A DNA stretch of 61,737 nucleotides, the filler included. It is 8 parts of 8 records of this genome, joined end to end, with 100 filler letters (N's around TTAATTAATTAA, not from the genome) between each part and the next. Parts side by side here need not be neighbours in the genome. Positions count along the whole stretch, not along the records: positions 20,834 to 31,232 come from SRR31147125_82244; positions 31,333 to 42,953 come from SRR31147125_82247; 6 more parts are not named here. One strand, given 5' to 3'. Positions 12,304-46,533 of the stretch are shown here, one piece after another. Numbering within the stretch: position 1 is the stretch's first letter; each line of letters begins with the position of its first letter. Both the position numbers and the translations under genes were made by a program. The notes under the pieces are model-generated. The model had not been told where the DNA came from, searched no databases, and was given only the letters and a program-made list of their open reading frames with translations.

Positions 12304-13034
12304 TACTTTTCTTTATCCATCAATTCAAAGGCCGTATTAAACTCGGAGATATAGCCCTGATCGGCAAAACTGTAAAATCCGCTATCTCCGGTGATCACAT
12401 GCTCGTGGACCGTGATGCCCACATGACGACAGGCAAACAGTAAGCGTTTGGTGATGGCAATATCTTCCGGAGAAGGCGTGTAGTCGCCGGAGGGGTGGTT
12501 GTGAGCAAAAATAACCGCTGCGGCGCGATGCTCCAATGCCTTGATAATCACCTCTCTGGGATAGACGGAGCTCATGGTCAATGTTCCTTCGAAAAGAATT
12601 TCAAGTGCATTGACCCGATTTTTAGCATCCAGAAATACACCGGCAAACACTTCCCGATGTCGCCGGCCGATGGCATGATCGAGATATGCCATCAACTCTT
12701 TGGAATTACTCACCACATCTTTATCGATAATCCGTGTGGCAAGGTAGCGTTCCGCCACCTCTTTGATCAACTTGATTCCCAAAATATTGGTCGGACCAAC
12801 GCCTTTGATCCTGGAAAGCTCTTCCGGGTTGGCTTCAAATACCCCTTGGAGTGTTTTGAAGCTTTTCATCAGTGCCTTGGCACTCTCCTTACAATCCCGC
12901 CGAGGGGTATTCAGGGTCAAAAGAAGCTCTATCACCTCATAATCTAAAAATCCGGCAATGCCATTTTGAAGGAACTTCTCCCGAAGGCGTTTTCTATGCC
13001 CTTCCCCTCTATGTTTTTTCTCATTCGTCGTCAT
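12303..13034 (-). CDS. radC: RadC family JAB-domain protein
   Basis: GHRKRLRE N-terminus, HhH (IKGVGP), VYPREV, JAB motif HNHPSG..SPEDI..HEH; start reassigned to MTTNEKK at 13034. Confidence 0.9.
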   Translation of the reverse strand: MTTNEKKHRGEGHRKRLREKFLQNGIAGFLDYEVIELLLTLNTPRRDCKESAKALMKSFKTLQGVFEANPEELSRIKGVGPTNILGIKLIKEVAERYLATRIIDKDVVSNSKELMAYLDHAIGRRHREVFAGVFLDAKNRVNALEILFEGTLTMSSVYPREVIIKALEHRAAAVIFAHNHPSGDYTPSPEDIAITKRLLFACRHVGITVHEHVITGDSGFYSFADQGYISEFNTAFELMDKEK

Positions 13035-15671
13035 CGCCCGGGTCCGATTCATCTTCCGGCAACGAAGGGGGCATTTCCCCAATGTCATCGTCTTCAAATG
13101 CATCTTTATCGCCAATCGCTTCGGAAGTGTCGGCGGGTATATCCAACGGTGATAAGGAGGAATCCGGTAGCGGCTCTGCATGGCTCAGCTGGGGCTCTGC
13201 GTCTTTAGTCTCCGCTGCTTCTTCGGTCTCAGTTTCGTCAACGTCTTTATTTTCATCCTCCGGAAGTCTTGCAACGGCAATGAGTTTTTCATCTTGGGAG
13301 AGATTGATCAATCGAACCCCTTGGGTATTTCTACTGATGGTGGAAATACTCTCTACCGGAATTCGAATCAATTTTCCTTTATCCGTCACCAGCATCAACT
13401 CATCGGTGTCTTCCAGAAGCAGCAAAGAGACCATCATACCGTTGCGTTGAGAGGTTCTGATGGAGAAAACCCCTTTACCGCCACGGGTCTGGGCACGATA
13501 CTCGTCAAGTTTGGTGCGCTTGCCGTATCCGTTCTCGGTGACCGTCAGCAGGGTCTGACCATGACTCAGCACCTCCATACCTACAACCTGTCCCCCGCCA
13601 TCGATGCGCATGCCTTTAACGCCCATGGCACCTCTGGCCATTGCCCGAACGTCCTCTTCATGGAATCGAATCACCTTTCCGGCCTTGGAACCTAAAAAAA
13701 CATCCATGGTTCCGTCACTGATTCGAGCGGAAATCAGCTCATCTCCTTCCGCTAATTTGATTCCAATGAGCCCACCGGAACGGGGTCTGGAGTAGGCCAT
13801 GAGATCGGTCTTTTTGATACGCCCCTGTTTGGTAGCCATCAACACGTATTTTCCCTCTTCAAATTGAGGGACCGTCAACACCGTTGCCAGCTGCTCTTCG
13901 GGTTCAAAGTTGAGCAGATTCACAATGGCTTTGCCCACACTGGATCGACCGGCCATGGGAAGTTCATATACTTTTGCCTGATAGACTTTACCCATATTGG
14001 TGATGAAAAGGAAGGTGTGATGGGAAGAAGCCACAAACAGATGCTCGACAAAGTCATCTTCCTTGGTCCCCATGGCCATCTTACCCTTCCCCCCCGATGT
14101 TGACTGGCATAGAGGGAGGCCGGATTTCGTTTGATATACCCACTGCTGGAGACGGTGACCACCATGTCCTCTTCAGCAATGAGATCTTCGATCTGAATCT
14201 GACCGGCATCTTCAACAATTTGGGTTCGACGCGCATCAGCATACTCGCTCTTCAACTCGGTCATCTCATCTTTGATAATCCCTTTGACCACCTCTTCGCT
14301 TGAGAGAATCTCTTTGTACCAGGCAATGTCCTTTAACAGCGCCGCATACTCTTCATTGATTTTTTCTCTCTCCAGACCGGTGAGACGCTGCAATCGCATT
14401 TCCAAAATCGCCTGGGCCTGCACTTCTGAAAAATCAAATGTTGAAATCAGTCCTGATTTGGCCTCATCCGGAGAGTTGGAGGCACGAATTAACGCCACCA
14501 CTTCGTCAAGATGATCCAACGCTTTTTTCAACCCTTCAAGGATATGGGCCCGCTCTTGTGCTTTTTTCAGGTCAAACAGGGTCCGTCGAACAATCACCTC
14601 TTTTCGATGCTCGATAAAATGTTCCAGAATCTCCTTGATGGTGAAAAGCTGAGGCCGTTTATTCACAACCGCAAGAAAGATAATTCCAAAACCGGTCTGC
14701 ATGTAGGTGTGTTTGTAGAGCTGATTAATCACCACATCGGCAATTTGATCCCGCTTCAGGCCAATGGCAATGCGCATTCCGTGTCGATCGGACTCATCCC
14801 GGACAAATGAGGCTCCCTCGATCACCTTTGCTCTCATCAGCGCATCAATTTTTTCCACCAAGCGCGCTTTGTTGACCTGATAGGGAAGCTCCGTGACCAC
14901 AATGGTCTCTCTTTTGGTTTTGCTGTTCTCCTCCACCTCAATTTTTGCCCGAAGCGTAATCACGCCCCGGCCGGTGGCATAGGCATCATAAATTCCTTTT
15001 TTTCCATGAATAATCCCATGGGTAGGAAAGTCCGGTCCCGGAATGTGCTGCATAATTTCGGGGATATCCATATCGGGAGTGTCCAGCAAAGCGATCATGG
15101 CATCACACACTTCCCCGATATTATGGGGGGGAATGTTGGTGGTCATTCCCACGGCGATACCGGAAGACCCATTGACAAGAAGGGCCGGAAATTTGGTCGG
15201 CAGCACCGACGGCTCTTCGATGGTCTCATCGTAGTTGGGGATCCAATCCACCGTATCCTTTTCAAGATCTGCGAGCATCTGGTGGGAGAGTTTCCGCATT
15301 CGGATCTCGGTATAACGCATGGCTGCCGGGGAATCCCCATCCACCGAGCCGAAGTTGCCCTGTCCGTCGACCAGGGTATACCGCAATGAGAAATCCTGGG
15401 CCATGCGTACAATGGTATCGTATACGGCCGAATCCCCATGGGGATGATACTTACCGATAACATCACCCACCACACGGGCCGATTTTTTGTAAGGCTTGTT
15501 CCAGTCGTTTTTCAACTGGCGCATGGCAAAAAGTACACGACGGTGTACCGGTTTCAATCCATCCCGAACATCAGGCAAGGCTCTGCCGATAATGACACTC
15601 ATGGCGTATTCGAGATAGGACTGCTTCATCTCCTTCTCGATACTGGTTACATGATCATCTTTTTCTATCAT
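13021..15671 (-). CDS. gyrA: DNA gyrase subunit A, split by a 1-nt deletion at the C7 run 14089-14095; long acidic C-terminal tail
   Basis: [25 protein letters not shown], catalytic AAMRYTE; adding one G restores the GyrA-box QHRGGKG and joins ORFs 13920..15671 and 13021..14079. Confidence 0.96.
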
Positions 15672-16256: not shown

Positions 16257-17542
16257 TCAACGTTCGATCACCATTGCCATTCCCATTCCCCCACCGATAC
16301 ACATGGAAATCAATCCGGTGGCGTAATTTTTTCGTTTCATTTGATGAATGGCGGTTACCATCTGGCGGGCCCCGGTACAGCCAATGGGATGTCCCAGTGA
16401 AATACCGCTTCCCAACTCATTGGGTTTCTCAACATCAATGCCGAGCTCACGCATACAGCCGATGGCCTGGGCGGCAAATGCTTCATTGAGCTCAATCAAT
16501 TCGATATCGCCAATGGTCATATCGGCTTTTTTAAGTGCCGTGTTGACGGCAGGGACAGGCCCAAGCCCCATGTAAGCCGGATCCAAACCGCCGGATGCAT
16601 AGGTTTTGATCCTGGCAAGCTTCTCCAGCCCAAGTTCATCGGCTTTCTCTTCGGTCATGAGTAAGACGGCGGCAGCCCCGTCGTTGATGCCGGAGGCGTT
16701 ACCGGCGGTGACGCTCCCCTCTTTCTTAAATGCAGGTCTAAGTTTGGCCAGCTTTTCAAGACTGGTCTCCATAGGACGCTCATCACTATCCACCACAATC
16801 TCTTTTTTCTTGACTTTATGGTGATGGGCTCGATTTCCTGGGCAAAGGTTCCATCATGGACTGCAGCAAAGGCGCGGGTATGGCTAAGTAGTGCCAACTC
16901 ATCCTGCTCCTGTCGAGTGATGCCGTATTTTTCAACAATGTTTTCTGCCGTAAGCCCCATGTGGTATCCGTAGAAAATCTCATAAAGACCGTCATACACC
17001 ATGAGATCGTGAACATCTCCGACACCGGTAAGCTCCATTCTGTGGCCCCATCTGGCATTCAACAGCGCCATGGGAGCATTACTCATACTCTCCTGTCCTC
17101 CGGCAAGAATCACATCCGCATCTCCGGCTTTGATGGCTTGTGCTGCCAAGGCAATGGCTTTGAGACCGGACCCGCATATTTTATTGATAGTGAACGCGGT
17201 GGTATATCTTGGAATGCCGGCTGCAATCATTGCCTGACGTGCTGTATTCTGTCCTTGACCTGCCTGAAGAACATTGCCCATGATGACTTCATCGATCTGC
17301 ACCGGAGTGAGACTCTCATCATAATCATACCCCCTCTTTTCAAGATCGATCATGCCTTGATCTTTTAAAGCCTCGGGACCGGCTGCCTGAACGGAGTCGT
17401 CCACCACCGGTCTCAGTCCCGCTTTTTTGAGTACACTTTTCATGACCGTTGTTCCAAGCTCTACTACGGGGACGCTTTTCAATACGCCGCCAAATGATCC
17501 CACAGCTGTTCTTGATCCACTAACGATGACCACATTTCTCAT
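16257..17542 (-). CDS. acetyl-CoA C-acetyltransferase (thiolase), 1-nt deletion at the T6 run 16803-16808
   Basis: NKICGSG catalytic Cys, NEAFA, GHPIG, CIGGG; adding one A gives [16 protein letters not shown] and joins the two ORFs. Confidence 0.93.
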
Positions 17543-20722: not shown

Positions 20723-20833
20723 ATATAAAAGATNNNNNNNNNNNNNNNNNNNNNNNNNNNNNNNNNNNNNNNNNNNNTTAATTAATTAANNNNNNNNNNN
20801 NNNNNNNNNNNNNNNNNNNNNNNNNNNNNNNNN

Positions 20834-22300
20834 AAAACTCTCCAACAGGATATCTTCCCTGGTTTCTTGCAGCCCTTGGAGGGTTTCTCGGGACAAAACA
20901 CCTGTCTTTGCGCTTTGGCAATGAGTTTATAGAACGCAACCTGGAAGATTCCCGGAACAGGCTGGGTAATCTGATACGGCATTGCGAACTTGAGGTTATC
21001 GAACAGGCGGAGCACGGGGATATCTACACCCGGATGACCCTGGATATGAAACGAATCTCCATGATATTTCGTTCGGGTATCAACCTGATCCAGGGGGGGG
21101 CCATATTCTGCGCCATCTGGATCTATTTTTTATTTACCTCGGTAAAAGCCGGGCTATTAATCTGTTCAATAATTTTGATCTATATATTTTTGCAAAAAAT
21201 CATCGACCCTGTGATCAACGGGAAAAACCGCGTTGCCATGGAAAACGAAGCCCGACTATTCACCTTTTTCGAACATGTTATCCAAGGGTTTAAAGAACTG
21301 AGGCAGAATACAAAAAAATCCCGGGATTTCTATGAAAATTATTTACAGCCCCTTGCAAAAAAAGCCACGGCCCGGAGAATTGAAGCCAATGAAAAATTTT
21401 TGGGCCTGGCTGTCAGCACCAACGCCCTTGGCCATCTGTCCATGGGCATGATTATATTTGTGCTTGATTTCGGATCTGCCGATATGACCATGAAGTTATT
21501 TGTCATGTACGGATTTTTGATCCATGCCATTACGGTCATGCTGTCCAACCTGCCCGAGGTCATGGAGGGCAATGTGGCCATTCAAAGGATTTGGGAGCTT
21601 GAAGACCAATTAAAGCCCTATCATAAAAAAGAGCCCGTGGCTGGTTTGGCCAAGACAAAAAATTTCAAAGAAATCAGAATTAAAGACCTTGTGTTTGACT
21701 ATACTGACAAAAACGGAGAGACAACCTTCTCATTAGGCCCTGTCAATTGTACTATCAACCGCGGTGAAATCATTTTTCTTACCGGAGGCAACGGCGGGGA
21801 AAATCAACCTTGCTAAAGTTGATCTCAGGGCTGTACCCACCGCGGTCCGGAAGTATCACCCTGGACATCCCCCTGGCCGCATCAGCGCCCATCAACATCT
21901 TTTTTCAGCCATATTTTCCGATTGCTACCTCTTTGACCGGCTCTACGGCATTGACCAACCCGATGATCAAAAAGTCAAGGAACTGCTCCTTGCCATGGGG
22001 CTTTCCAATAAGGTCCGCTGGGATCCGCCCTCGCTTGCCCACCACGGACTGTCCTCCGGTCAGACCAAGCGACTGGCCTTTATCGTCTCCCTGCTGGAGG
22101 AAAAACCCATCTATATTTTTGATGAATGGGCCGCAGAACAGGACCCTGTTTTCAGAAAGACCTTTTATGAGACTCTGCTTCCCGCCATGAAAGCTGAAGG
22201 AAAAACAGTGATCGCAGCCAGTCATGATGACCGGTATTTTCATGTGGCAGATCAAATTATAAAGTTGGACTACGGCATTCCTGAGGATAATAGATGCTGA
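20834..22300 (+). CDS. cyclic-peptide export ABC transporter (SyrD/PvdE/YojI family), 5'-truncated, two 1-nt frameshifts (~21796 G-run, ~21870 C-run)
   Basis: TM domain with GFKELR; FSLGPVNCTINRGE..GGNG.GKSTL; LSSGQTKRLA; FDEWAAEQDP; SHDDRYF, spread over three frames. Confidence 0.88.
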
Positions 22301-23883
22301 AAGATCTTGTCAGGGAACGCTATCCCCAGGTTAAAAAGTATTGTCTCCTGGTTTTGTGCTATGCCTGCATGGATATCGGGATGCTCATTGTATGCAATAT
22401 GGCCGTTGTCAGGCTCTTTAAAGGGGAGTCCAACGTCAGGCAATTTTTGCTTTTCATCGTGCTGGTGTCTGCTGTGCTGTTTTTTTTAAATACCACGGCA
22501 AAACTGAGTATCCGCATTATTGAAGGGCTTGTCCAGGATTTCAGGGAAGGCATCATAAAGCAGGTGATCCATGCTGAATTGGCATCATTTGAACGCATGA
22601 ATTCCGCGCAAATCTATAATATTCTCACCCGGGAAACCCAGGCCATCTCCTTAATTGCCAATCGATTCATACAGATCTCCAGGGTTTTGATTGTAACCGC
22701 CGGCTATCTTGCCATCCTATTGTTTGTCTACCCCCAGGCCTTTATCTGTGTCTTACTCTGTCTTAGCCTGGGTACAGCCATTTATGCCTGGAGGATCATA
22801 CGGGCAAAGGCTGAGATCACCCGGGCAAGGGAAAAAGAAAAAGAACTTTTCAGCGCCATTCAAGCCTTGCTTTACGGATTTAAGGAGTTGAAAATAAACC
22901 CTGAAAAAAGTGAGGCTTTTTTTAAAGGGGCCTTTGTTGAAACATCCAGGCAAACCCGGGAATCCAGGATCCAGGCGGAAAATGAGTTTGCATTCAGCAA
23001 TGTGTCGGCAAGCCTTGTCCAGTATGCTGTTTTTATTCCCATTCTTTTTATTCTTCCGCTCATTCAGGAGGTTCCCGCCCTGGGATTGATGCTCACGGTG
23101 AACCTGCTGATCTTCACCCCCTTTGATGTTCTAAAGGAGGGAATCCCCTACCTGGTAAGGGCCGGGGTGTCCATTGAGCGGATCATGGCGTTTGAAAAAG
23201 AATTCACCGGGCTGAAAACCGAGGCTCAGGACTTATCAAGCCAAACAGATTTCTCCCATGATATTAAATATGAACATATTAATTTCAGCTATACCGATCC
23301 TCTGGGCACCCCTGTATTTTCCCTGAAGGATATTGATCTGACCATAAACAAAGGGGAAGTCCTTTTTATTGTGGGGGGCAATGGCAGCGGAAAATCAACA
23401 TTGCTCAAAATTATAACCGGGCTTTATTTCCCGCTTTCAGGGGGGATAAAGCAAGACGGTAAAGAGGTTGAATCCGTATCCCTTCGCCCCCTTTTCACAA
23501 CGATTTTCTCGGATTTTCACCTGTTTGACAGGCTATACGGCATTGAGGATCCAGATATTAACAAAGTCAACCAATGGCTTGAGTTAATGCAATTATCAGA
23601 CAAGTTAAGCCTCAGGGATAACAGATTCACCACCCTTGATCTTTCCACAGGCCAGAAAAAACGGCTGGCCATGGTTGCTGCAATCATGGATGACAAGCCC
23701 ATCTATATCTTTGATGAATGGGCTGCAGATCAGTCCCCGGAATTTCGCGACTATTTTTATCGCAATCTTCTGCCCCTGCTCAAATCCCGGGGCAAAACCG
23801 TGATTGCGGTAAGCCATGATGACCGCTACTTTGATGTGGCCGACCGGGTGATCGAGCTGGATTACGGCAAGATCCGAAGATAA
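22294..23883 (+). CDS. cyclic-peptide export ABC transporter (SyrD/PvdE/YojI family)
   Basis: GFKELK, GGNGSGKST, LSTGQKKRLA, family-typical FDEWAADQ, SHDDRYF. Confidence 0.92.
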   Translation: MLKDLVRERYPQVKKYCLLVLCYACMDIGMLIVCNMAVVRLFKGESNVRQFLLFIVLVSAVLFFLNTTAKLSIRIIEGLVQDFREGIIKQVIHAELASFERMNSAQIYNILTRETQAISLIANRFIQISRVLIVTAGYLAILLFVYPQAFICVLLCLSLGTAIYAWRIIRAKAEITRAREKEKELFSAIQALLYGFKELKINPEKSEAFFKGAFVETSRQTRESRIQAENEFAFSNVSASLVQYAVFIPILFILPLIQEVPALGLMLTVNLLIFTPFDVLKEGIPYLVRAGVSIERIMAFEKEFTGLKTEAQDLSSQTDFSHDIKYEHINFSYTDPLGTPVFSLKDIDLTINKGEVLFIVGGNGSGKSTLLKIITGLYFPLSGGIKQDGKEVESVSLRPLFTTIFSDFHLFDRLYGIEDPDINKVNQWLELMQLSDKLSLRDNRFTTLDLSTGQKKRLAMVAAIMDDKPIYIFDEWAADQSPEFRDYFYRNLLPLLKSRGKTVIAVSHDDRYFDVADRVIELDYGKIRR

Positions 23884-26800
23884 AGTTGAGACAGCTTTTT
23901 ATCCGGTGCCGCCGCAATGGCCGCCAGCAAGGCCACAAACCCGTCTTTCATTGAGGCAATTGTCCCCTGACAAAACAGATCAGTGTTATAGACAAAAACA
24001 CCCCTGATTTTGCCCCCCTTTCCTCCACGGAGACATCCAGATCGTATTTTGTGACATTGGAACTGCCCAGATCTAAAATCTCAAATGTCGCATCTGCCAC
24101 CCCAAAGCATTCCCCGAAAGGGCCGATATTGGGGGAGTCAAACACCACCTGGAACAACGGGGGCTGACGCCTGTCCCGTTTGATGCCAAGGCCGTTCAAC
24201 AGCATCTCAAAGGGCAGGTCCTGATGGGCAAAGGCCCCCACCACAGATTGTTTTACCCGGTCCAAAAGGGTGGTAAAGGATGGATCCCCGCTCAGATCGG
24301 TTCTCAGGGGAAGAAGATTCCCGAAAAATCCGATCAATTGCTCAATCTGCCTGTGGTTTCTGTTGGCAATAAGGGTGCCGAGAACCATATCCTCTTTTCC
24401 TGTATAACCCAACATCAGGGTGGCAAAGGCGGCGTGGAGGGTCATGAAAAGGGTTGTACCGGCCTTTTGGCCCAAGGCCTTGATCTTTTGGGCCAGATCC
24501 TCGTCAAGTTCGAAACCCAGTGAATCCCCGTTAAAGGTTTGAACAGGTCCCCGGGGAAAATCTGTGGGCGGTGCAAACAGAGAAGGTGCCCCTTCCAGGT
24601 ACCCTTTCCAAAAGTCAATGTGGGTTTTCAAGCGATCACCGGAGAACTCGTTTTCCTGCCAATGGGCAAAATCCGGATACTGGATGTCAAGATCCGGCAA
24701 GTCCGGGGGGGTGTCCTGGGCAAAGGCGCAATATAATTTTTGGAACTCCTGGAAAAAAATCCCCGAGGACCAGCCGTCAAAAATCAGATGGTGGATGGTG
24801 ATCAAGAGGAGAAATTTTTGGTCTTCCAGACAGAGAATTTTTGCCCGGATAAACGGCCCGCAGGTCAGGTCAAAGGGGGTTTCCACCTCCTGGGAGGCCA
24901 GGCAAAGGGCTGTTTTGTCCGGGTCTTTTTCATTGCGAAGATCTGTCACAGGCAGGCCAAGGGTCAACTCAGGGAACCTGACCTGCACAGGCGGTTTTGC
25001 ATGGGCAATCACCGTTCGCAAGGCCTTATGGCGGGCAATGATTTCATTTAAGGCCCATTTAACCCCCTCAATATCCACATCGCCTGTGATCCGGCAGGAC
25101 AGGGGCACATTATAGGTAAAATTTTTCCCGCCGTCCATGTCACTCAGATACCAGAGGCGCTGCTGGGTAAGGGATAAGGGGCATGGGGTGTGGGAGGCCA
25201 CAGGCAGAATCGGGCAAAAGGCCTCACCCTCCCCGCCGGATGCCCTGCGATCCATCTCCCGCCCCAGCTCCCGGATGGTCGGCAATTCAAATAGTTTTCT
25301 AATGGAAATCCTTGCCCTGAAAACCGCCTCCATACGGGCGACAACAGCCACCGCCAGCAGGGAATGCCCGCCCATGCGAAAGAAATTGTCATGGACGCTG
25401 ATGGTGTCAAGGGTGAGCATCTCTTTCCAGATGCGGCTGATGATTTTTTCAGTTTCATTGGCCGGGCAGACAATGTCATGGGTCCGCATGAGCCCGGCAT
25501 CAGGCAGTGGCAGCGCGCCGCGATCGACTTTTCCATTGGGTGTCAAGGGCAGTGCATCAAGCATGATAAACCCGGCCGGGATCATGTAATCGGGCAAGCG
25601 TTTTTCAAGGAACCTGCGCGCATCATCCGGGGTATGGCTGCTGTTTTCCACCACCAGATAGGCCAAAATCTGTTTATCACCGGACCGGGTTTCATGGACC
25701 ATGATAAAGGCATCCTTGATCTTCGCATGCCCCTCCAATATGCGCTGGATCTCACCCAGTTCAATTCTGAACCCCCGAATTTTCACCTGAAAATCCCCTC
25801 TGCCCACAAATTCAATGGCACCATCGGGCAGGTACCGGCAAAGATCCCCTGTCTTGTAGATCCGGCTGCCGGGAGTGAAGGGATTGGGGATAAAGGCCTT
25901 TTGGGTCAATTCCGGGCGGTTAAGATATCCCCGGGCCAGCCCTGCCCCACCGATGTGAAGCTCTCCTTTAACCCCAATGGGCACGGGAAGCCCGTTTTTA
26001 TCAAGGATATAGCAGACCTTGCTGGCAAGGGGCCTGCCAATGGGAATGGTATTGGCTCTTTCTGGCACATGGGTAATACGGTGCCAGGTGGCATATGTGG
26101 TGGTTTCCGAGGGACCGTACATATGGAGGATATTTTCCGGTGGGGCGGTGTCCAGGATCTGTTTCACCCGCTGGGGATTTACAGCCTCGCCGCCGAACAG
26201 CAAATATCTCAAAGAAGAAAAGGCCCCTGGATTCAACCGGGCGATCTGATTCAAAAGGGCTGTGGTCATAAACAGGATACTGATCCCCCTCTCCCGGACA
26301 CAGGCGGTGAGACGGGAGGGAGACAGGGCGGTTTCCCGGTTGATCCCCACAAGGGCGGCACCGTTTGCAAGTGCCCCCCAGATCTCAAAGGTGGCAGCAT
26401 CAAAGGAAACATTTGAGGCATGGGCAATCCTGTCCTCGGGGGTGATACAAATATAGTCGGTATGGGTTACCAGCGGCGGTAAGGCCCCATGGGGGATGCA
26501 TATGCCTTTGGGTGTCCCGGTGGAGCCTGAGGTATAAATCACATAGGCCAGGTCATCCCAAGCAGCGCAGCGTCCAAGATTTTCCTTTCCTTCCCTGCCG
26601 ATCACCTCCCATTCTCTGTCCGGGCAGACCAGGGTCGCCTGGATCTCAGGCAACAAGGATAAAAACCGGGACTGGGTCAGGACAGCAAAAACCTTTGCAT
26701 CTTCCAGCATAAAGGCAATCCGTTGGGCCGGATATTCCGGATCAACAGGGACATAGGCACCGCCGGCCTTTAAAATTCCCAGAAGACCAACAATCATTTC

Positions 26801-28570
26801 AACGGATCGTTCCATACAGATGGCCACCCGACGGTCAGGTCCGATTCCCAGTCCTTTTAAATGGTGCCCCAATTGATTTGCCCGCTGGTTAAGCTCATCA
26901 TAGGTCCATTGCTGGTCTTCAAAAATAAGGGCAATGGCACCCGGGGTTTTTTTAACCCGGTCTTCAAACAGCTCATGGATGCATTTGTCCGGAGGGCAAT
27001 CCCCCTGGGTGGTGTTGAACCCCATAAGAACTTTATCATGCTCCTCATCTGTGAGGATGGGCATCTTTGATAGGGGGTGTTCCGGGTTTTTCACCATTGC
27101 TTCCAGCAAGACCTTAAAATGAGAGATCATCTGATCAATGGTCTGCTCTTTAAACAGGGCCGTGTTGAATTTAAAGGCACCGGTGAATGCATCCGGGGTC
27201 TGATACACTGCCACCGCCAGATCAAACTGGCCCGTCTGCTGTTCAATGACAAGCCCCTGTGCCTGGTTTTGGTTCAGGGTGATGCCCGGGTGTTTTATCA
27301 AAGAGGTGATTTTTTTATCATACAGGGAAAACGAAGACTGAAACACCGGCGAGATATTGAGAGCGTGCTCTATTTCAAGTCCTTTGCAAATGGAGGCAAA
27401 GGGGTATTTCATATGGGAAATCCCCTGACTTATTGTCTGGCTGATCTGCTCCACTAAGGTGACAAAGTCCAGATCACCTGAAAAATCAGCCCGTATGGGC
27501 AGCATATTGATAAAATATCCTGCAACCCCCTTGAACTCGGGCATGGGCCTGACAGAGGCAGGAATGCCGACCACAATATCGGTTTGGGCTGAATACCGGT
27601 GGAGCAATACGGTGTAAGCCGCCAAAACCGTCCTCAGCAAGGGCTTTTTCAGGGACTTTGAAAGGGAGGTAATCTGTCTGCTTAAACGGCTGTCAATGCT
27701 GAAGTTGCGGGTTTTCCCCTGAAAACGCTGCACAGGGGGTCTGGGGTAGTCAAAGGGCAGGTCAAGGGGGGCCATGGGCCCGGCCAGCTGTTTTTCCCAA
27801 TATGCCCGGTCAAGGGCACCCTGGGAACTGTCCATCCACTGTTGCTGCAAATCAATAAAATCCTTATACGACCGATCCAGTACCGGCAGGTCCAGCTCCG
27901 GCAGATCGGCAGTCCTTCCGGCTTTTGAGTCGTAGATCTTTTGAAACTCGTCCCTGAACATCAAACCGGTGGTTGCATCGTCAATAATGTGATGCTCGGT
28001 CATGATAAGGACATGGTCCCTGGGGCCCCGGCTCAAGAGGAATAACTTGACCGGGATTTCATTTTCCAGGTCAAAGGGGGTGGCATAGGCTTTTTCTGCC
28101 ATCTGTTTCAACTGCCCCAGGTCAGCGCCAGAGGCATCTATGCGTTCCAGAACAGCCTGTTTATAGGCATATACCCGCTGCAGGACACGCCCGTTCCTTC
28201 CGGTAAAGAACAGGGTTCTCAGGCAGGCATGGCGATTGACCAGGGCCTGAAAACTGGCCTCAATGACAGAGGGCTCAACCTTGAAACAAATTTTACAGGA
28301 AATAGGACAGGTGTTATAGGCTGAGGCTTTTGGCGCTGTTTTGTAAATGAACCACAAGGCCTCCTGCGCCGGAGATAAAGGATAGGTGTCTGAAACAAAA
28401 TCCCCCTTTTTCAACCAGGCGACAATCTCTTGTTGAAGTGTGTCAATCCTGTCCCGGTCCGCCACGGTCATGGCCCCATCAGGATCCTTGCAGGTCACAC
28501 CCCCATTTTCATCAATCCATAGATTCACACCCTTTTTTTTCAGGGCTGTCAAATAGTTTTCTATATCCAT
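23862..28570 (-). CDS. non-ribosomal peptide synthetase, TubC_N-type docking domain-C-A-T-C, no thioesterase
   Basis: N-terminal MDIENYLTALKKKGVNLW..EIVAWLK; C1 EHHIIDDA; A-domain YTSGSTGTPKG, FDAAT, YGPSE, YKTGD, KIRGFRIELGEI, NGKVDR; T GGHSLL; C2 HHLIFDGWS. One extra G at the C6 run 24013-24018 gives the canonical C-domain end (VYNTDLF..TI...PDKKLSQL) with a stop at 23862. Confidence 0.93.
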
Positions 28571-28656
28571 CCTGCCTCTCAATGATCCGCCTTTTACAGC
28601 CTGGAGTTTAAATCAAGCCCGCCTAAAACACAGGGCAAATTAGCCTGACCAATACC

Positions 28657-29703
28657 TTAAGCAGATGGGGCCGGATCAGTGTATGAGAATTTGTGTCCCT
28701 GATAATTTCTGAAAACATAGGTGCGATCCTGTCTGGACACGAGGTATTCGGGCAGCAAAGGTATTTTTCCGCCGCCGCCCTGGATATCGATGACAAGGTG
28801 AGGTACGGCCAACCCGGACATCCAGCCTCGAATGCTGTCAATAATGGCCAGGCCTTTATCCAGGGTCGGCCTGAAATGATGGGTGCCTTTAACAATGTCC
28901 GGCATAAAAAGGGTATAGGGTTTGACCCTGATGGTTAACAAATTGCGCACCAGACGCCTCATCACCTCCGGGTCAGTGTTCACCCCGTTTAACAGCACCG
29001 ACTGATTGCCCAGGGGAATTCCGGCATCCGCCAGCATGGCGCAGGCTCTGGTGGATTCTGGTGTGATTTCCCGGGGATGGTTAAAATGTACATTCATGTA
29101 CAATGGATGATATTTTTTAAGCATATGGCACAAATCATCTGTAACCTGCATGGGAGAGACACAGGGCACCCGGGTGCCGATGCGCAGAATATCAATGCTG
29201 GGGATCTCCCTGAGTTTTGCAAGATAGTATTCAAGTCTGTCAACGGGCAGCATGAGCGGATCTCCCCCGGACAGGACCACATCCTTGATCCCAGTGTGTT
29301 CCCTGATATACACCAATGCCCGCTCAAAATTCTCATCGCTTATCTTGACCGGTGCACTGCCGAACCGCTTCCGGGTGCAGAACCGGCAGTTCATGGCACA
29401 GGTATTTGAAATAAGCAAAAGCACCCGGTCCGGATACCTGTGGGTGAGGCCGGGCACAGGGGAATCTCTGTTCTCCTCAAGGGGGTCTTCCTCTCCGGCA
29501 GTCTTTCGGATCTCCTGAATATCCGGCAGGCACTGATTCCAGATACCATCTTCGGTCTCACGAATCAGCCCCAGGTAATAGTCGGTCACCTTTACCGGAT
29601 ACTTTTCAGCCACCGGTGCCATGCGATCCATGTACCCGTCCGGGTTGAATCCGGTGCGTTGAAAAACCGTTTCCATCTTAAGGCATTGATTTGTCCAGCT
29701 CAT
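28657..29703 (-). CDS. KamA-family radical SAM/PLP aminomutase (lysine 2,3-aminomutase-like)
   Basis: THRYPDRVL, CAMNCRFCTRKR, LSGGDPL, RIGTR, HFNHPRE, NQSVLL, PLP lysine in GGGGKIP. Confidence 0.92.
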   Translation of the reverse strand: MSWTNQCLKMETVFQRTGFNPDGYMDRMAPVAEKYPVKVTDYYLGLIRETEDGIWNQCLPDIQEIRKTAGEEDPLEENRDSPVPGLTHRYPDRVLLLISNTCAMNCRFCTRKRFGSAPVKISDENFERALVYIREHTGIKDVVLSGGDPLMLPVDRLEYYLAKLREIPSIDILRIGTRVPCVSPMQVTDDLCHMLKKYHPLYMNVHFNHPREITPESTRACAMLADAGIPLGNQSVLLNGVNTDPEVMRRLVRNLLTIRVKPYTLFMPDIVKGTHHFRPTLDKGLAIIDSIRGWMSGLAVPHLVIDIQGGGGKIPLLPEYLVSRQDRTYVFRNYQGHKFSYTDPAPSA

Positions 29704-29717
29704 CTTTATCTCCGGTG

Positions 29718-31229
29718 CTAAAATGCGGCTTCCATAAAGGCGGGATCAAAATTGGGAAACCGTTTGCCCAGTTTTTTCATCACATCATCATGGGTGCCGA
29801 TTTTTTTGGCCATGGTCGAGCAATAGGTATCCAAGGCTTTGTGATACAGATACTCCAGATCCCTTCTGGTCAGGGTGGCAGTTTCGTAGGCAGGGGCGTT
29901 CCTGCCGTCATAATTGGTAAAATCCGGCTCGGTCCATGTAATATTATACTTTTCTTTTTTCTCATAAAACCGGGTGCCCGGATACCCTACCAGCAGGTTG
30001 ATCTCACTGCAGCTGGACAGATCCTCTGCCAGCCATTGCCCCATGGTATCAATGGTCATATTGGCGGATTCATAGGTTTCAAAGGGTGAGCCCACCAGCC
30101 AATAGGTATGGGTATGGATGCCTTCCTCCCGGGCCATTTCCAGCATTTTAACGGCATCGTCCAACTTATAGCCTTTGCCCATGCGGTTGAGGATGTCCTG
30201 GTTGCCGCTTTCAATGCCCAGGTGCAGACAGACGCACCCGTTATCGACCAGCCGCCGCAGCATATCCCGTGTCACCTTGGGGTTCACCCGGGTCTGGGCT
30301 TCCCAGACAATGCCCTGTCCCAGATTCCCCACCACATCGGCGATTTCAAGGGCCTGGTCAACATTGTGGAAAAAATCATGGGTGCCAAAATAGAAAAACC
30401 GGGTATCCCGATTTTGGGTCAGATAAATGATTTCCTCGGCAAACCGGTCCAGGCGCTGGTTTGACACCGAATGCTTCCAATAATCCGCACACCAGATACA
30501 ATTGTTGGTACACCCAGTGGTCGGGGTGACCCGGGAAATGGGAATCTGAATACGGGGCTCGGGATCCAGTTCCTCCGGGGTAAAATTGTCTTCCAGGTGG
30601 GAATAATCCGGAATGGATAAAATGGTCCGGTCCATTCGGGGACGCTCGGGCCCGGAAACGATTTGTCCGTCTTTACGAAAACTGAGTCCGGGAATCTTTT
30701 CAAAATCGCCGTTGGATTCAATGGCCTTTACCAGGTCAAGGGTGGTCAGTTCCCCCTCTTTTTTCACAATAAAATCAAAGACCGATGTTTCCAGGATTTC
30801 TCTGTCCCGGGCCCAGGCATGGGCACCGCCCAGGGCCAGGGGGATATTGGGATGGGCTTTTTTAACGGCTGCGGCCATGCGGGCGGCGGTATTATAGCTT
30901 GCGGTAATGGCGGAAAAGCCGATCATGTCAAATTCGCCGGCCCGCTGCATCACCTTTTCCAAGAGTTTCTCCTCCCGTTGTGCTTCACGGCCTTTGGGAG
31001 AAATAGAGGCAAAAAACGAGCATTCAATATCGTGGCTTTCCAAAAAGGCAATGAGTTGGAGCAAGCCTAAGTGAACCGGCTCCAACATCCAGAATCTGGA
31101 AAAGTCCTTTTCATCCAGATGCTCAAAAACGGTTAGGGCCCGGTAGGCGAACAGATAAAAATAATATTCCCGCTGTAACTGGCTTAAGGGCACTGCCGGT
31201 ACAGGCGGTGCAACAAAGGCGACTTTCAT
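29718..31229 (-). CDS. cobalamin-dependent (class B) radical SAM enzyme, probable methyltransferase
   Basis: N-terminal B12-binding-type domain (HLGLLQL, IGFSA, LGGAHA, EGE, IPGL) and GCTNNCIWC CxxxCxxC; GIESG; YPGT. Confidence 0.88.
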   Translation of the reverse strand: MKVAFVAPPVPAVPLSQLQREYYFYLFAYRALTVFEHLDEKDFSRFWMLEPVHLGLLQLIAFLESHDIECSFFASISPKGREAQREEKLLEKVMQRAGEFDMIGFSAITASYNTAARMAAAVKKAHPNIPLALGGAHAWARDREILETSVFDFIVKKEGELTTLDLVKAIESNGDFEKIPGLSFRKDGQIVSGPERPRMDRTILSIPDYSHLEDNFTPEELDPEPRIQIPISRVTPTTGCTNNCIWCADYWKHSVSNQRLDRFAEEIIYLTQNRDTRFFYFGTHDFFHNVDQALEIADVVGNLGQGIVWEAQTRVNPKVTRDMLRRLVDNGCVCLHLGIESGNQDILNRMGKGYKLDDAVKMLEMAREEGIHTHTYWLVGSPFETYESANMTIDTMGQWLAEDLSSCSEINLLVGYPGTRFYEKKEKYNITWTEPDFTNYDGRNAPAYETATLTRRDLEYLYHKALDTYCSTMAKKIGTHDDVMKKLGKRFPNFDPAFMEAAF

Positions 31230-31384
31230 CCTNNNNNNNNNNNNNNNNNNNNNNNNNNNNNNNNNNNNNNNNNNNNTTAATTAATTAANNNNNNNNNNNN
31301 NNNNNNNNNNNNNNNNNNNNNNNNNNNNNNNNAAAAAGATTCCTAAGGTGTCTCAAATGCAGAATGTCAGAGCTTAATATTGCA

Positions 31385-43053: not shown

Positions 43054-43697
43054 TTTTTGCATTTATTTCTTGTTTGATCAGTTCTTTTATAATTTTTAAT
43101 CTGGCTAATCACAATAAAAAAGTTAATGTAGCAACTTTACTGATAATCGGTATTGCTATATCCTCTTTTTTAGGTTCTTTTACATCATTTGCTATGTACT
43201 TTATAGGAGAAGATTCGTATAGAATAACTATGTGGACAATGGGGTATTTGGGAGCTGCCACTTGGGAAAAAGTCTGGATTTTGCTAATACCTCTGCTTAT
43301 TTCAGTTGTATATTTTTATAAAGTCAGAATCGAGCTTGATGCACTCTTAAACGGCGATGAAGAAGCCCATGCATTAGGGGTAGAAGTTGATAAACTGAAG
43401 AAAAAGTTACTTATAGTCTCTTCGCTTATAGTAGCATTTTCAGTGGCTTTTAGCGGTATGATAGGTTTTATCGGACTTATTGTCCCTCATACACTGCGGA
43501 TGTTAGTTGGAGGAAGTAACAGTAAACTTATACCAAGTGCAACTGTGGGTGGAGGACTGTTTTTATTAGTTTGTGATACTATAGCCAGAACGGTTTTGGC
43601 ACCTGTAGAGATACCAATTGGAGTTATAACATCATTTTTAGGAGCTCCGTTTTTTATCTATTTAGCTTTCAAAGCAAAGAAAGGCGGCTTATTATAA
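43054..43697 (+). CDS. heme/iron-siderophore ABC permease (FecCD/HmuU), 5'-truncated
   Basis: GDEEAHALGV, GMIGFIGLIVPH, CDTIAR..EIPIGVITSFLGAPFF. Confidence 0.9.
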
Positions 43698-44479
43698 TGA
43701 ATATTTATACAATAAGTAATCTTAAATATAGCATAAGGGAAAAAGTTATTCTAAATGAGATAAATTTTTCTGTTAAAAAAGGAGAAATTTTAGGTATCTT
43801 AGGACCTAATGGAAGCGGGAAATCTACTTTGCTAAAGACACTTCTTAATTATCTAAAAAAAGATAATGGAAAAATAGAAGTAATAGACAAAGAGATAGAA
43901 AAGTATAAAAATAAAGAACTGGCTAAAATTGCAGGATTTGTACCTCAAAAACCGAGACTTACAATGTCTCTCAGCGTACGGGATTTTGCTTTGCTCGGTA
44001 GATTACCACATATAAAAAATTCATTTAGTTCATACAGCCAAGAAGATTATGATTATGTAAATGAAATATTGAGAATTATCCAATTAGATAAATTTAAAGA
44101 CAGAGATGTTCATAGCTTGTCAGGTGGAGAATTTCAGAGAGTATTGCTGGCGAGAGCATTAGCACAAGCTCCTGAAGTACTTATTTTAGATGAGGCGACT
44201 TCGGCTATGGACATGAACCATGCACTAAATATGATGAATTTAACAGAAAAATTAGTTAAAAATCATGAATTAACAGCAGTAGCTGTATTACATGATTTGA
44301 ATTTAGCTGCACTTTATTGTGATAAAATAATTTTTTTAAAAGAGGGAAGTATAAAATATTTTGGAGAAGTAAAGGATTTATTTACAGAAGATAAACTAAA
44401 AGAGATATACGGTTTTGATTGTAACATCATAGAAAATTCATACGGGAGACCATCAATCATACCGTTAAAGGGAGTATAA
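43697..44479 (+). CDS. heme/iron ABC ATP-binding protein (HmuV/FecE)
   Basis: GPNGSGKST, LSGGEFQRV..ARALAQ, LDEATS, LHDLNLA. Confidence 0.92.
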   Translation: MNIYTISNLKYSIREKVILNEINFSVKKGEILGILGPNGSGKSTLLKTLLNYLKKDNGKIEVIDKEIEKYKNKELAKIAGFVPQKPRLTMSLSVRDFALLGRLPHIKNSFSSYSQEDYDYVNEILRIIQLDKFKDRDVHSLSGGEFQRVLLARALAQAPEVLILDEATSAMDMNHALNMMNLTEKLVKNHELTAVAVLHDLNLAALYCDKIIFLKEGSIKYFGEVKDLFTEDKLKEIYGFDCNIIENSYGRPSIIPLKGV

Positions 44480-45718
44480 ATGTTTAAAAGAAGATTAAAA
44501 TCACATCATAATGCCGGGGGCTTATTAGACAAACATATTGCAAAAACAAGAATTGATAAAAAAGCATATTTGAATATCCTTAATCAAAAAGGAGATATAC
44601 AGAGCAAAGTAATGTACATTCATATACCGTTTTGTGATAAGATATGCTCATTTTGTAATTTGAATAGAACACAGCTTGATAATGATCTGGAGGAGTATAC
44701 AGAGTATCTTCTGGCAGAGATCAGATCAATTGCGGAGAATAGTTATGTAAAAGATAATCTGTTTGAATCAATCTATTTTGGTGGTGGAACTCCTACAATT
44801 TTGAGAACTCATCAATTAGAAAAAATACTTGTCTGTATTACTGAAAATTATAATTTACATGATGAATATGAGTGGACATTTGAAACAACTCTTCATAACT
44901 TAAATAATGAAAAAATAGAGCTATTTAATAAATACGGAGTAAACAGATTAAGTATAGGAATACAGACGTTTTCTGATAAAGGCAGAGATTTCCTGAACAG
45001 AACTTACAACAAAAATGAGATAAAAGAGAGAATAAACGAGCTAAAAAATAAATTCAAGGGATATATCTGCGCAGATATCATTTATAACTATCAGGGGCAA
45101 AGTACTGAAGAGGTTAGAGAGGATGCAAAGTTAATCAAAGAACTCAAATTTGATAGTGTCAGCTTTTACTCACTTATGATACATGAAGGTTCAAAGTTAT
45201 CAGAGCAAAACATAATGTTATCAGATTCGGCTAAAGACTATGATTATTTCAAGGCATTTTATGATCAGTTAAATAATGATGATGAATGGGAACTGCTTGA
45301 ACTGACTAAATTTGTTCGAAAAAACAGAGATAAATACAAATATATCACTTTACGAAATACCGGGGCAGATACTCTACCGCTTGGAGTTGGAGCCGGAGGA
45401 AATGTTGGAGATATTTCAGTCTATAATATGAAAGAAAATATGTCATTTTATGTTAAACAAAGTGATAAACATATTAAATACAATAAACTTGGCGGATTAT
45501 TACAGTTTAGTTCATATGATCTAATTAAAATTCAAAAAATAATAGATCCTGAAAATTATGAAATATTTTTGTCATGCCTTAAAACATTTGAAGATGAAGG
45601 GTTGGGACATTTTGAAGAAAACAGATTTTACTTAAATTCAAAAGGTATTTTCTGGGGTAATAATATGTCCAAATATTTATGTGAAAAATTAATTGAAAAG
45701 GAGTTTTTTTATGATTAA
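44480..45718 (+). CDS. HemN-like class C radical SAM protein, probable anaerobic heme-degrading HmuW/ChuW
   Basis: YIHIPFCDKICSFC, YFGGGTPT, NRLSIGIQTF; KSHH N-terminus; lies inside a heme-type ABC operon. Confidence 0.78.
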   Translation: MFKRRLKSHHNAGGLLDKHIAKTRIDKKAYLNILNQKGDIQSKVMYIHIPFCDKICSFCNLNRTQLDNDLEEYTEYLLAEIRSIAENSYVKDNLFESIYFGGGTPTILRTHQLEKILVCITENYNLHDEYEWTFETTLHNLNNEKIELFNKYGVNRLSIGIQTFSDKGRDFLNRTYNKNEIKERINELKNKFKGYICADIIYNYQGQSTEEVREDAKLIKELKFDSVSFYSLMIHEGSKLSEQNIMLSDSAKDYDYFKAFYDQLNNDDEWELLELTKFVRKNRDKYKYITLRNTGADTLPLGVGAGGNVGDISVYNMKENMSFYVKQSDKHIKYNKLGGLLQFSSYDLIKIQKIIDPENYEIFLSCLKTFEDEGLGHFEENRFYLNSKGIFWGNNMSKYLCEKLIEKEFFYD

Positions 45719-46533
45719 AAAATTAGTATTGTTCTTTGCACTAAGCCTTACACTATTTGCAACTGAATATGAGCGAATTATTGTGCTTGATCCTGCAGTT
45801 GTGGAAACAATCTATATGCTCGGTGGTGAGGATAGAATAGAAGCTATAGCACATTCAACTATGACGCCTATTGAGCCTGCTGATAAAACGAAAAAGTTAC
45901 CAAATGTAGGAACCCTTCTAAAACCAAGTCTTGAGCTGATTATGGCGCATAAGCCCGACATGGTAATTGCAGGTAAATTTCATGGAAAAATACTTAAAAG
46001 TTTTGAAACTTTCGGAGTTCCATATACGACCTTTGAAGCAAAAACACTGGATGATATGCTAAATAATATTTTATCAATAGGAGAAATGGTTGGAAGGCAA
46101 GATGAAGCAAAAGCACTATATGAGATTAGTTCAAATAAACTAAACAGAGTAAAAAAAGGCTTGGAGAAAAAACCTTTGAATTTGAAAGGAACTTTTATCT
46201 ATAATTCCACTCCATTAATTGCATTTTCGGGTAAATCTATTCAACACGAGATACTACTTTCTTTGGGAGTCGAAGATATAGCAGCCGGAGTTGTCGGACA
46301 GAGACCTATTTTAAGCCCCGAATATATTTTAGAAGAAAATCCTGATTTTTTAATTGGAATTATGGGAATAAAATCAAAAGAAGATTTAATCAGAAGTAAT
46401 GAATATCTGCTGAAGACTAAAGCAGGTAGAAAAAAATATCCACATATTGCAGTCAAATAGAATACTTCGTATTTCGCCGCATATAGTTTCTGAAATAGAA
46501 AAAATTTATGAATTTTTGAATAGTTTAAACTAG
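45711..46533 (+). CDS. periplasmic/extracellular heme- or siderophore-binding protein (HmuT/BtuF type), frameshift at the A7 run 46430-46436
   Basis: Signal peptide, RIIVLDPAVVE, PSLELI..KPD, ENPDFL; the alternative frame continues NIHILQSNRILRISP..LN* to 46533. Confidence 0.85.

Follow-up and report, generated by a model that had tools for sequence, protein, structure and literature searches.

A piece of an uncharacterised peptide gene cluster and its possible link to a four-radical-SAM cassette of several unrelated anaerobes

The window analysed here, a stretch of 61,737 nucleotides made of joined contigs, contains a genuine piece of an uncharacterised peptide natural-product gene cluster (Table 1). 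Two of its genes, coding for a B12-binding radical SAM protein and a KamA-family aminomutase, have counterparts in a cassette of four radical enzymes, itself uncharacterised, which is carried by several unrelated anaerobes. Taken jointly with the four-radical-SAM explanation developed below, the reading of the contig as the 3' end of a biosynthetic operon has, in our judgement, an even chance of being right. The organism was labelled a probable sulfate reducer in the original prediction; none of 8 proteins of the window was present in the protein collection searched, and the taxa given by the Atlas were uninformative on this label.

Table 1. Features of the cluster contig and of its two borders (positions in the window)
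Feature	Position	Strand	Evidence
Contig linker (N44, 12 bp, N44), end of exporter side	20734..20833	.	
Exporter 1, SyrD/PvdE type	20834..22300	+	TIGR01194/PRK10522 on both pieces; tblastn with exporter 2
Exporter 2, SyrD/PvdE/YojI-type cyclic-peptide ABC exporter, intact	22294..23883	+	TIGR01194 317.3 > 286.2
NRPS, TubC_N dock-C-A(Ile/Val-type)-T-C	23862..28582	-	Pfam, motifs; listed ORF 28582-23948
Short KamA-family aminomutase, 348 aa	28657..29703	-	TIGR00238 271.8 > 199.2; TIGR03820 404.8 < 525.4
B12-binding radical SAM protein, 503 aa	29718..31229	-	PF02310 + PF04055; ATG 3 nt from contig end
Contig linker (N44, 12 bp, N44), opposite end	31233..31332	.	

The cluster fragment is one whole contig of 10.4 kb (20834-31232), and the gaps by which it had been thought to be cut are contig linkers, seven of which, each N44-12 bp-N44, are present in the window. 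As the linkers join separate contigs, neighbouring contigs of the window need not adjoin in any genome; tetranucleotide correlations between the cluster contig and the others (0.05-0.36) were uninformative. The predicted tight minus-strand operon was confirmed in its genes, strands and spacing: the B12 radical SAM gene, a gap of 14 bp, the KamA gene, a gap of 74 bp and the NRPS gene, converging with the plus-strand exporter genes. As for these supposedly twin exporters, both are of the SyrD/PvdE type, but only exporter 2 is intact, its 3' end overlapping the extended NRPS end by ~22 bp. The 5' end of exporter 1 lies off the contig, and its frame changes near 21796-21799 and at about 21870-21890, around the Walker A region, leave two pieces scoring 76.5 and 148.4 bits with TIGR01194. 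With the one at the NRPS end, three frame changes were seen on the contig. Homopolymer errors of the assembly are their likely cause, since the GyrA gene, on another contig of the window, is also split at a G run. One sequencing run was matched (share 0.08), with no RNA data set among the matches listed, and, among the contig pieces listed, none spanned the frameshifts. The numbers of promoters (14 vs. 10.7 +/- 3.7 in shuffled sequence) and terminators (19 vs. 13.6 +/- 3.7) were inside the shuffle range.

The proposed dock-C-A-T-C arrangement of the NRPS held, the TubC_N docking domain scoring 27.3 bits (cut-off 26). Its ORF is frameshifted at the G run 24013-24018, which conceals the last ~50 residues; the alternative frame stays open as far as the stop at 23862, and its product aligns with the C-terminal end of the best relative, P0205 (67% over 39 aa). 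Once the frame is restored, the protein ends in a complete C domain, and P0205 stops at the same point. This terminal C shares 70% identity with that of P0205, vs. 44.5% for the next match. The elongation module has an intact HHxxxDG motif in C2 and the serine of the T domain, while C1 reads HHxxxDA, and C2 resembles an ordinary C domain by sequence. By a crude count, the terminal-C ending occurs in 2 of 120 NRPS relatives. Such a domain may also act together with a separate A-T protein downstream, whose gene might be in the missing part. Compared with P0205, the window NRPS is without the first A-T-C, the similarity switching at about residues 530-620; the one additional module of P0205 has a code which we take to be Ser-type. 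The sole A domain on the contig has the code DAFFLGMTYK, which agrees with the Ile/Val code DAFFLGVTFK at 7 of 10 positions, the mismatches of the variable pocket being counted as two (322, 331). Judged by this code, the domain is Ile/Val-type and not beta-lysine-type; no beta-lysine-activating A domain was found on the contig, with its one A domain, and the idea that the NRPS loads a beta-amino acid is not supported.

The homology of the aminomutase with lysine 2,3-aminomutase, as originally claimed, stood up well. The protein matched PDB 2a5h (E 2.7e-104) and keeps the CxxxCxxC motif as well as the equivalents of R134, D293, D330 and K337 (numbering from the 2a5h alignment), the first three presumably with lysine-binding roles and the last presumably as the PLP lysine. 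It passes the wider TIGR00238 model only, missing the cut-off of the AblA equivalog TIGR03820, and it scores lower with the arginine than with the lysine aminomutase model. It falls in a cassette-linked clade (support 0.994). At locus L015 the KamA is canonical (TIGR03820 593.6 > 525.4), and those of L015 and L016 fall outside this clade, so that two separate lineages of KamA serve the cassette; on sequence grounds, this would fit plain beta-lysine as what the cassette needs.

The cassette was surveyed in 24 metagenome loci with a B12-family gene, all counts being limited to the DNA fetched; the 18 loci with a full-length B12 gene form 10 groups at 90% identity. Its gene content (SPASM-1, SPASM-2, the 503-aa B12 enzyme and KamA) is conserved and the order kept, whereas the partners vary. 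A SPASM radical SAM gene (SPASM-2) precedes the B12 gene in 20 of the 24 loci, the four misses having at most 4 bp upstream, and SPASM-1 is present too in 17, all misses having at most 1082 bp upstream. KamA accompanies the B12 gene in 16 loci; L017 has none within 9.8 kb downstream, and L021, which carries the other three radical SAM genes, shows no KamA over 19.8 kb. Contigs of eleven sizes are common to the B12-family and KamA-clade records. Since neither SPASM-1 nor SPASM-2 had a match anywhere in the window, SPASM genes are what we infer for its organism: they would lie upstream of the B12 gene, beyond the contig end at 31233. At L026, whose product is 85% identical to the B12 protein over the first 71 aa, SPASM-2 is directly upstream. 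Membrane and GNAT genes are among the cassette neighbours, and in L011/L012 the cassette lies directly behind two tRNA-Ser genes. An Rfam search of 8 loci gave two tRNAs and one fluoride riboswitch, the latter on the opposite strand.

No NRPS or SyrD-type gene was found in the fetched DNA of any of the 24 loci, 13 of which have at least 4.8 kb downstream. This tells against the radical SAM enzymes being NRPS tailoring enzymes, as had been supposed. Within that DNA, most relatives show the unlinked state that the original prediction itself had named as its refutation, but one independent contig seems to keep the B12 radical SAM, KamA and NRPS genes together: the Logan contigs recorded for P0001, P0085 and P0205 all measure 34,809 bp, the equality of size being the sole basis. 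The NRPS link of the cassette rests on this equal size and on the window contig.

The B12 protein belongs to an unnamed conserved family of 503 aa. It has the class B architecture, with an N-terminal B12-binding domain and a CxxxCxxC radical SAM domain whose C240, C244 and C247 are invariant in 45 family sequences. The family is tight: 47 of 65 matches have 48-83% identity and the remainder at most 29%, and in the 50%-cluster library the runner-up among full-length proteins scored 307 bits vs. 947. No NCBIfam family cut-off was reached, the best scores being those of ApyD (138.9; cut-off 750) and HpnJ (134.1; cut-off 577.6). The predicted model (pLDDT 91) has the B12 radical SAM fold. Its top match is AprD4 (Z 28.2, rmsd 3.0, 402 aligned), tied with CysS (Z 27.9, rmsd 3.3, 424 aligned); OxsB follows at Z 24.3. 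In this model, the fold is equally near the non-methylating AprD4 and the methylase CysS, which leaves methylase and non-methylase undivided, so the C-methylated product of the original prediction is not supported. It is rather unlikely that the B12 enzyme C-methylates an NRPS-bound residue (e.g. Val/Ile to tert-Leu or beta-methyl-Ile, CysS-like on a carrier-bound substrate), with beta-lysine entering via a module on the missing part. The tight operon with the NRPS, the Ile/Val-type A domain and the rank of CysS would agree with it, as would the majority held by methylases among characterised B12 radical SAM enzymes in the part consulted of PMC8950095. However, orthologues of 55-62% identity occur at loci without an NRPS, and no short RiPP precursor or ACP ORF was evident by eye among plus-strand ORFs of at least 20 aa in 17 intergenic stretches beside the cassette, although a precursor may be encoded farther away; a carrier-bound aliphatic residue is therefore unlikely to be the shared substrate.

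Concerning the partners, orf410, with a putative CDPS/PvcA-like fold, was found in 11 of the 24 loci, including Chlorobiaceae types, and a KS-KS fusion with a GNAT in 4. The orf410 model (pLDDT 70.5) matched TyrRS (Z 8.8, rmsd 3.9, 205 aligned), PvcA (Z 8.7, rmsd 5.1, 216 aligned) and CDPS (Z 8.3, rmsd 4.6, 205 aligned), the three families being tied at Z 8.0-8.8. No Foldseek match at E <= 0.001 and no Pfam or NCBIfam match was obtained; Atlas matches, all < 0.9 and a lead only, had DIT1_PvcA on 32% of one cluster. This modelled fold match is borderline, and an amide ligase cannot be told from an isonitrile synthase by it. A tRNA-synthetase-like fold would suit a B12 enzyme that is not a methylase and links a basic amino acid to a second fragment (a SinC-like C-adenosylation of arginine) or rearranges a ring, the peptide being a Trojan-horse carrier. 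The ranks of AprD4 and OxsB point the same way, as does the sinefungin pathway, for which the consulted part of 10.64898/2026.05.21.726688 gives a B12 radical SAM step on free arginine, tRNA-dependent alanylation and export. Such a role is nevertheless distinctly unlikely: among the scanned cassette neighbours there was no kinase, phosphatase, arginase, corrinoid adenosyltransferase or PEARL.

The spread of the cassette is patchy, over several phyla, and green sulfur bacteria make up many of its carriers. A B12-family member is present in Prosthecochloris sp. GSB1 (WP_167375015.1, locus CHL67_03820, on a 2.47 Mb contig), in the same 90% cluster as the protein of the contig of locus L003. The B12 protein alone gave just two distant loci in genome contigs (29-33% over short stretches) and no match in viral contigs; 107 plasmid records gave matches, which in no case extended along 80% of the query and had ~26% identity in the best rows. 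It was absent from all 401 genomes sampled in the G001 phylum, a weak result in a sample with no positive control. No paper describing the cassette was found in the literature searched, most subscription papers being outside the search.

KamA with a GNAT is reminiscent of N-epsilon-acetyl-beta-lysine synthesis. This pairing, the many green sulfur carriers and SPASM-2 being best with NirJ2/AhbD, far below the cut-off (about 100 bits vs. 500), would speak for a cassette that acts on a lipid, cofactor, tetrapyrrole or macromolecule or serves to produce an osmolyte, its adjacency to the NRPS being incidental. We consider this very unlikely in view of the short gaps of the shared operon, its probable repetition on a second contig, the patchy spread (no carrier among the 401 genomes sampled from one phylum), the position behind tRNA-Ser genes in L011/L012, and the membrane and GNAT neighbours. 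Finally, it is barely credible that true frameshifts (exporter 1, NRPS end) and a lost module have left the window with a decaying, inactivated cluster, as the three frame changes and the missing first A-T-C might suggest, since homopolymer runs are found at or close to the breaks, the essential GyrA is broken likewise and the catalytic motifs are intact.

The explanation that we prefer, which might as easily hold as fail, is that an amine derived from beta-lysine is formed by a mobile four-radical-SAM cassette, and that here the terminal C domain joins this amine to an acyl-Ile/Val chain; the product and the chemistry are what we infer. KamA would turn L-lysine into beta-lysine, and the B12 and two SPASM enzymes would build an unusual amine X from free beta-lysine or one of its simple derivatives. 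The reactions would be C-methylation or a different radical C-C step, together with oxidative decarboxylation, desaturation or ring closure. Each lineage would couple X via an amide bond with a different machine: the aaRS/CDPS-like-fold protein in Chlorobiaceae-type loci, the KS-KS fusion with GNAT in others, and the NRPS here. In the latter, the docking domain and first C would accept a chain, acyl or peptidyl, handed over by an upstream protein that is missing here, and the A-T module would extend it by Ile or Val. The terminal C domain would then release it by transfer to the amine of X, which may be free or bound to a carrier of its own. Export would fall to the SyrD-type ABC transporters, and the exported compound would most likely be an antimetabolite or antibiotic of small acyl-peptide type.

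The pairing of the cassette with different bond-forming enzymes suggests that several products share one unusual building block derived from lysine. A broader proposal is tentative and falls somewhat short of an even chance: the four radical SAM enzymes (two SPASM, B12, aminomutase) would act in sequence on lysine to give an undescribed non-proteinogenic amine, and anaerobes from several phyla, green sulfur bacteria among them, would join this one warhead to three unrelated amide-forming systems (terminal NRPS C domain, KS-KS with GNAT, and a new CDPS/aaRS-fold ligase family), yielding a family of anaerobe products. The natural products known from strict anaerobes are few, and new chemistry continues to emerge from B12-dependent and SPASM radical SAM enzymes. 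A conserved cassette of four enzymes with interchangeable partners suggests one new building block, three attachments and an unannotated aaRS/CDPS-fold family. The Prosthecochloris sp. GSB1 member makes the cassette directly testable without the fragmentary source of the window and, if the four-radical-SAM lysine reading is true, the family could be opened up from a cultured Prosthecochloris strain.

Among known systems, aquimarin was considered as a parallel to the window cluster and dropped, since the consulted part of PMC12426817 describes reductive release and transamination, and not a C domain or B12 enzyme. CysS, TokK, TsrM, MgmA, OxsB and AprD4 share the B12-binding Rossmann domain and radical SAM barrel of the B12 protein (Z 21-28), with 13-19% identity in structural alignments. 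The cyanobacterial Ile/Val modules of cyanopeptolin (OciB-A5 and OciC-A7), from which the code family DAFFLGxTxK was taken (PMC2533009, in its Table 1), resemble the A domain in this code, and many of the cyanobacterial relatives listed have a TubC_N docking domain as well; however, identity is just 36-50% and the window NRPS ends in C, not in TE, R or a further module. The sinefungin cluster of Streptomyces incarnatus may be a working analogue, with a B12 radical SAM enzyme acting on a free basic amino acid and a product that is aminoacylated and exported; the part consulted of its description lists an arginase, kinase, phosphatase, PEARLs and an adenosyltransferase, and mentions no aminomutase, SPASM pair or NRPS (10.64898/2026.05.21.726688).

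Lysine 2,3-aminomutase KamA (2a5h) shares its radical SAM motif, PLP lysine and substrate-contact residues with the window KamA, which differs in its length of 348 aa, in being without Cys268 and the C-terminal zinc ligands, in clade-specific changes beside D293 and D330, and in falling below the AblA cut-off. The blasticidin S cluster combines the radical SAM decarboxylase BlsE with the arginine aminomutase BlsG, and thus resembles the cassette in a SPASM/twitch-type radical SAM enzyme, a KamA-type mutase and an amide-forming step; it differs in that SPASM-1 reaches 26 bits with the BlsE model (cut-off 400) and that no nucleoside glycosyltransferase is among the scanned neighbours. Viomycin, capreomycin and streptothricin are beta-lysine-containing peptides whose clusters also have KamA beside NRPS genes and a C domain placed for the final amide; by contrast, the window contig is without a beta-lysine-type A domain, and three further radical SAM enzymes travel with KamA.

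The studied cluster occupies exactly one contig (20834-31232, GC 0.50) of the eight that make up the window, the other contigs ranging from GC 0.30 to 0.51. It had been described as cut by gaps on both sides: the contig does end there, although the flanking gaps are two of the seven N44-12 bp-N44 linkers that join the contigs. The minus-strand operon of the original prediction was recovered, with the spacers listed below. Both of the twin peptide exporters are of the SyrD/PvdE type, and exporter 2 exceeds the TIGR01194 cut-off (317.3 vs 286.2), whereas exporter 1 is truncated where the contig ends and shows two frame changes between 21796 and 21890.

Features of the studied cluster, of the other contigs and of the compared metagenome loci (L handles); positions without a handle refer to the window
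Feature	Position	Strand	Remark
B12-binding radical SAM gene, 503 aa		minus	upstream-most of three
KamA-family gene, 348 aa		minus	14 bp after B12 gene
NRPS, TubC_N-C-A-T-C		minus	74 bp after KamA gene
Two SyrD/PvdE-type exporter genes		plus	
Frame loss in listed NRPS ORF	24013-24018		G run; second frame stops at 23862
Two proteins, signal-peptide-like starts	3135-4685; 4840-6700	plus	no Pfam match
ORF of at least 1696 aa	6801-11889	minus	fills whole contig
GyrA, split in two	13021-15671	minus	another contig; G run near 14090
Thiolase match	16257-17542	minus	spans only part of model
ABC uptake genes and ChuW/HutW-like radical SAM gene	43074-46460	plus	low GC; radical SAM gene 227.8 bits (cut-off 400)
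orf410, example	L005:12520-13752		410 aa
Double ketosynthase fusions	L015:3387-5957; L016:4145-6748; L021:4467-6884		
Two tRNA-Ser genes	L011:7488-7691		cassette starts about 160 bp behind
MiaB/RimO-type gene	L003:6138-7547; L009; L019:5778-7472		precedes cassette; Prosthecochloris-like loci

The best relative of the window NRPS, P0205 (2650 aa; 2399 bits vs 1943 for the next match), has a C-A-T-C-A-T-C architecture with a similar N-terminal dock, and the protein ends directly after the last C domain. Because its C-terminus matches the window NRPS in two frames, spanning the frame break, with the second frame completing the C domain before its stop, the predicted terminal C domain is real, as in the C-terminated NRPS first proposed. 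Its HHxxxDG motif is intact, and it matches P0205 at 70% and the next match at 44.5%. Up to about residue 530 the window NRPS resembles P0205 module 1, and beyond about residue 620 it resembles module 2; it is without one A-T-C unit relative to P0205, through either natural module loss or gain, or assembly collapse. As for the A-domain code, it is DAFFLGMTYK in the window and DAFFLGLTFK in P0205 module 2, while cyanopeptolin modules with the code DAFFLGVTFK load Ile or Val according to Table 1 of PMC2533009. Since the window code is of this Ile/Val type, the NRPS itself loads no beta-amino acid.

Twenty-four metagenome loci carrying a B12-family gene were compared. In 20 loci the gene immediately before the B12 gene encodes a radical SAM/SPASM protein, and 17 loci have a second such gene; wherever one is missing, the DNA upstream is too short. 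Of the 24 loci, 16 contain KamA; it was not found in 19.8 kb at L021, nor in 9.8 kb downstream at L017, and the remaining six misses are short or cut loci. When clustered at 90% identity, the 18 loci whose B12 gene is complete fall into 10 groups. Eleven contig sizes recur between the B12-family and KamA-clade records (34809, 4931, 9566, 12772, 8125, 7618, 9640, 8241, 8233, 10309 and 6420), in indirect support of the B12-KamA linkage. In L026, whose B12 protein is 85% identical to that of the window over its first 71 residues, SPASM-2 lies three bases upstream; because the window contig stops three bases before the B12 gene ATG, the SPASM pair, which has no match elsewhere in the window, was probably lost beyond the contig end. 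Concerning the cassette borders, the tRNA-Ser genes of L011 are a possible integration site, tRNAs being present in two of the 14 loci scanned, both of the same sequence. The MiaB/RimO-type gene is probably an insertion site and not a pathway part.

No NRPS or SyrD-type gene was found in any of the 24 loci in the DNA compared, which includes at least 4.8 kb downstream at 13 loci. Most relatives of the radical SAM genes are thus unlinked to an NRPS, and their reading as NRPS tailoring enzymes is not upheld. Eleven loci carry orf410, a partner ORF always downstream of the cassette KamA and without a Pfam or NCBIfam match; among these, a 415-aa membrane protein occurs in six, a small GNAT in four and an amino-acid-binding/symporter fusion in three. 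For the orf410 model (pLDDT 70.5), the fold matches are a borderline three-way tie at Z 8.0-8.8 between TyrRS, PvcA and cyclodipeptide synthases, and Foldseek gave probabilities of 0.92-0.99 against the last of these, yet no E <= 0.001; it is a candidate new family of tRNA-dependent ligases or isonitrile synthases. Four further loci have, in place of orf410, a double ketosynthase fusion together with a GNAT of 345 aa upstream. At L015, L016 and L021, the second ketosynthase domain keeps the Cys and the first His, with Gln or Gln-Pro at what we take to be the position of the second His. No ACP gene was seen beside these three fusions, and no precursor peptide or ACP is evident in 17 intergenic stretches of the cassette loci. 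The radical SAM cassette is the invariant part; what varies is the partner, each time an enzyme that could plausibly form an amide.

The window KamA aligns to the Clostridium lysine 2,3-aminomutase 2a5h (E 2.7e-104), with the equivalents of R134, D293, D330 and K337 kept, the zinc-site cysteines missing and clade-specific changes beside D293 and D330. It is over the general KamA model cut-off and below every equivalog cut-off tried (Lys, Glu, Arg, EpmB), the lysine model scoring highest among these. In a tree of 124 sequences (the window KamA, those of 12 cassette loci and, out of 120 listed matches, the 111 shorter than 450 aa), it falls in a clade of 32 (support 0.994) holding 10 of the 12 cassette-locus KamAs; L015 and L016 have a different, canonical KamA (for L015, TIGR03820 593.6 against a cut-off of 525.4).

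The B12-family search gave 65 matches, 47 at 48-83% identity and nearly all of 503 aa, the rest at 29% or less. When 1.84 billion cluster representatives were searched with a profile, one full-length family representative (947 bits) was returned plus fragments, the best full-length outsider reaching 307 bits. Named members belong to Prosthecochloris, Chlorobium/Chlorobiaceae, one Deltaproteobacteria MAG and one Spirochaetales MAG; Prosthecochloris sp. GSB1 is a cultured carrier. Three database proteins of 2100-2300 aa (P0327, P0328 and P0330), with four or five tandem B12 radical SAM profile matches, are distant from this family. The window enzyme is under all NCBIfam family cut-offs, and its model (pLDDT 91) is closest to AprD4 (Z 28.2, rmsd 3.0, 402 aligned) and CysS (27.9, 3.3, 424), followed by MgmA, TsrM, OxsB and TokK.

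To a mechanism in which KamA would supply beta-lysine, the B12 and SPASM enzymes would remodel it to an amine X, and the terminal C domain would here join an acyl-Ile/Val chain to X before export, we give even chances. Since AprD4 and CysS match the model equally, methylation by the B12 enzyme is possible; non-methylating B12-radical SAM members are also described (PMC8950095). Its action on an NRPS-bound residue is unlikely, the cassette standing without an NRPS at the compared loci. A sinefungin-like non-methylating coupling (compare 10.64898/2026.05.21.726688) is slightly less probable still. That the target is non-secreted and the NRPS linkage incidental seems quite improbable. The window's B12 subclade (the window and its relatives P0001-P0003; support 1.0) is poorly sampled for context, the loci nearest the window by identity (L022, L025, L026) all being under 2 kb, so that the NRPS link may be usual within it; the sole other sign of this link is that the best B12 (P0001, 83%), KamA (P0085, 79%) and NRPS (P0205) matches are each recorded on a 34,809 bp contig. 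Decay of the window copy, which the broken frames might evoke, is highly improbable, as these point to assembly errors: the NRPS break is read in this way because GyrA is also split at a G run, and the GyrA split and partial thiolase match suggest homopolymer errors across the assembly. Among its listed pieces, the one sequencing run aligned to the contig had none spanning the breaks.

The eight contigs, at 30% to 51% GC and with low tetranucleotide correlation, may come from different organisms. On another of them, the contig-filling ORF, which is devoid of Cys but has much Ala, Gly, Ser, Thr, Val and Asn, has no Pfam match at 1e-3 and no NCBIfam match at 1e-30; it has the look of a large beta-strand repeat protein, either secreted or on the cell surface. 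The low-GC uptake genes and their radical SAM neighbour probably serve heme uptake and anaerobic degradation.

The window cluster is a real, uncharacterised biosynthetic cluster fragment, and to this extent the candidate new pathway stands. No account of the four-radical-SAM cassette was found in the literature searched, mostly papers available without subscription. With the NRPS-tailoring reading gone, a larger unit comes into view: a mobile cassette of four radical SAM genes that has a cultured carrier and at least three partner systems, and each part of which is a member of a known superfamily.
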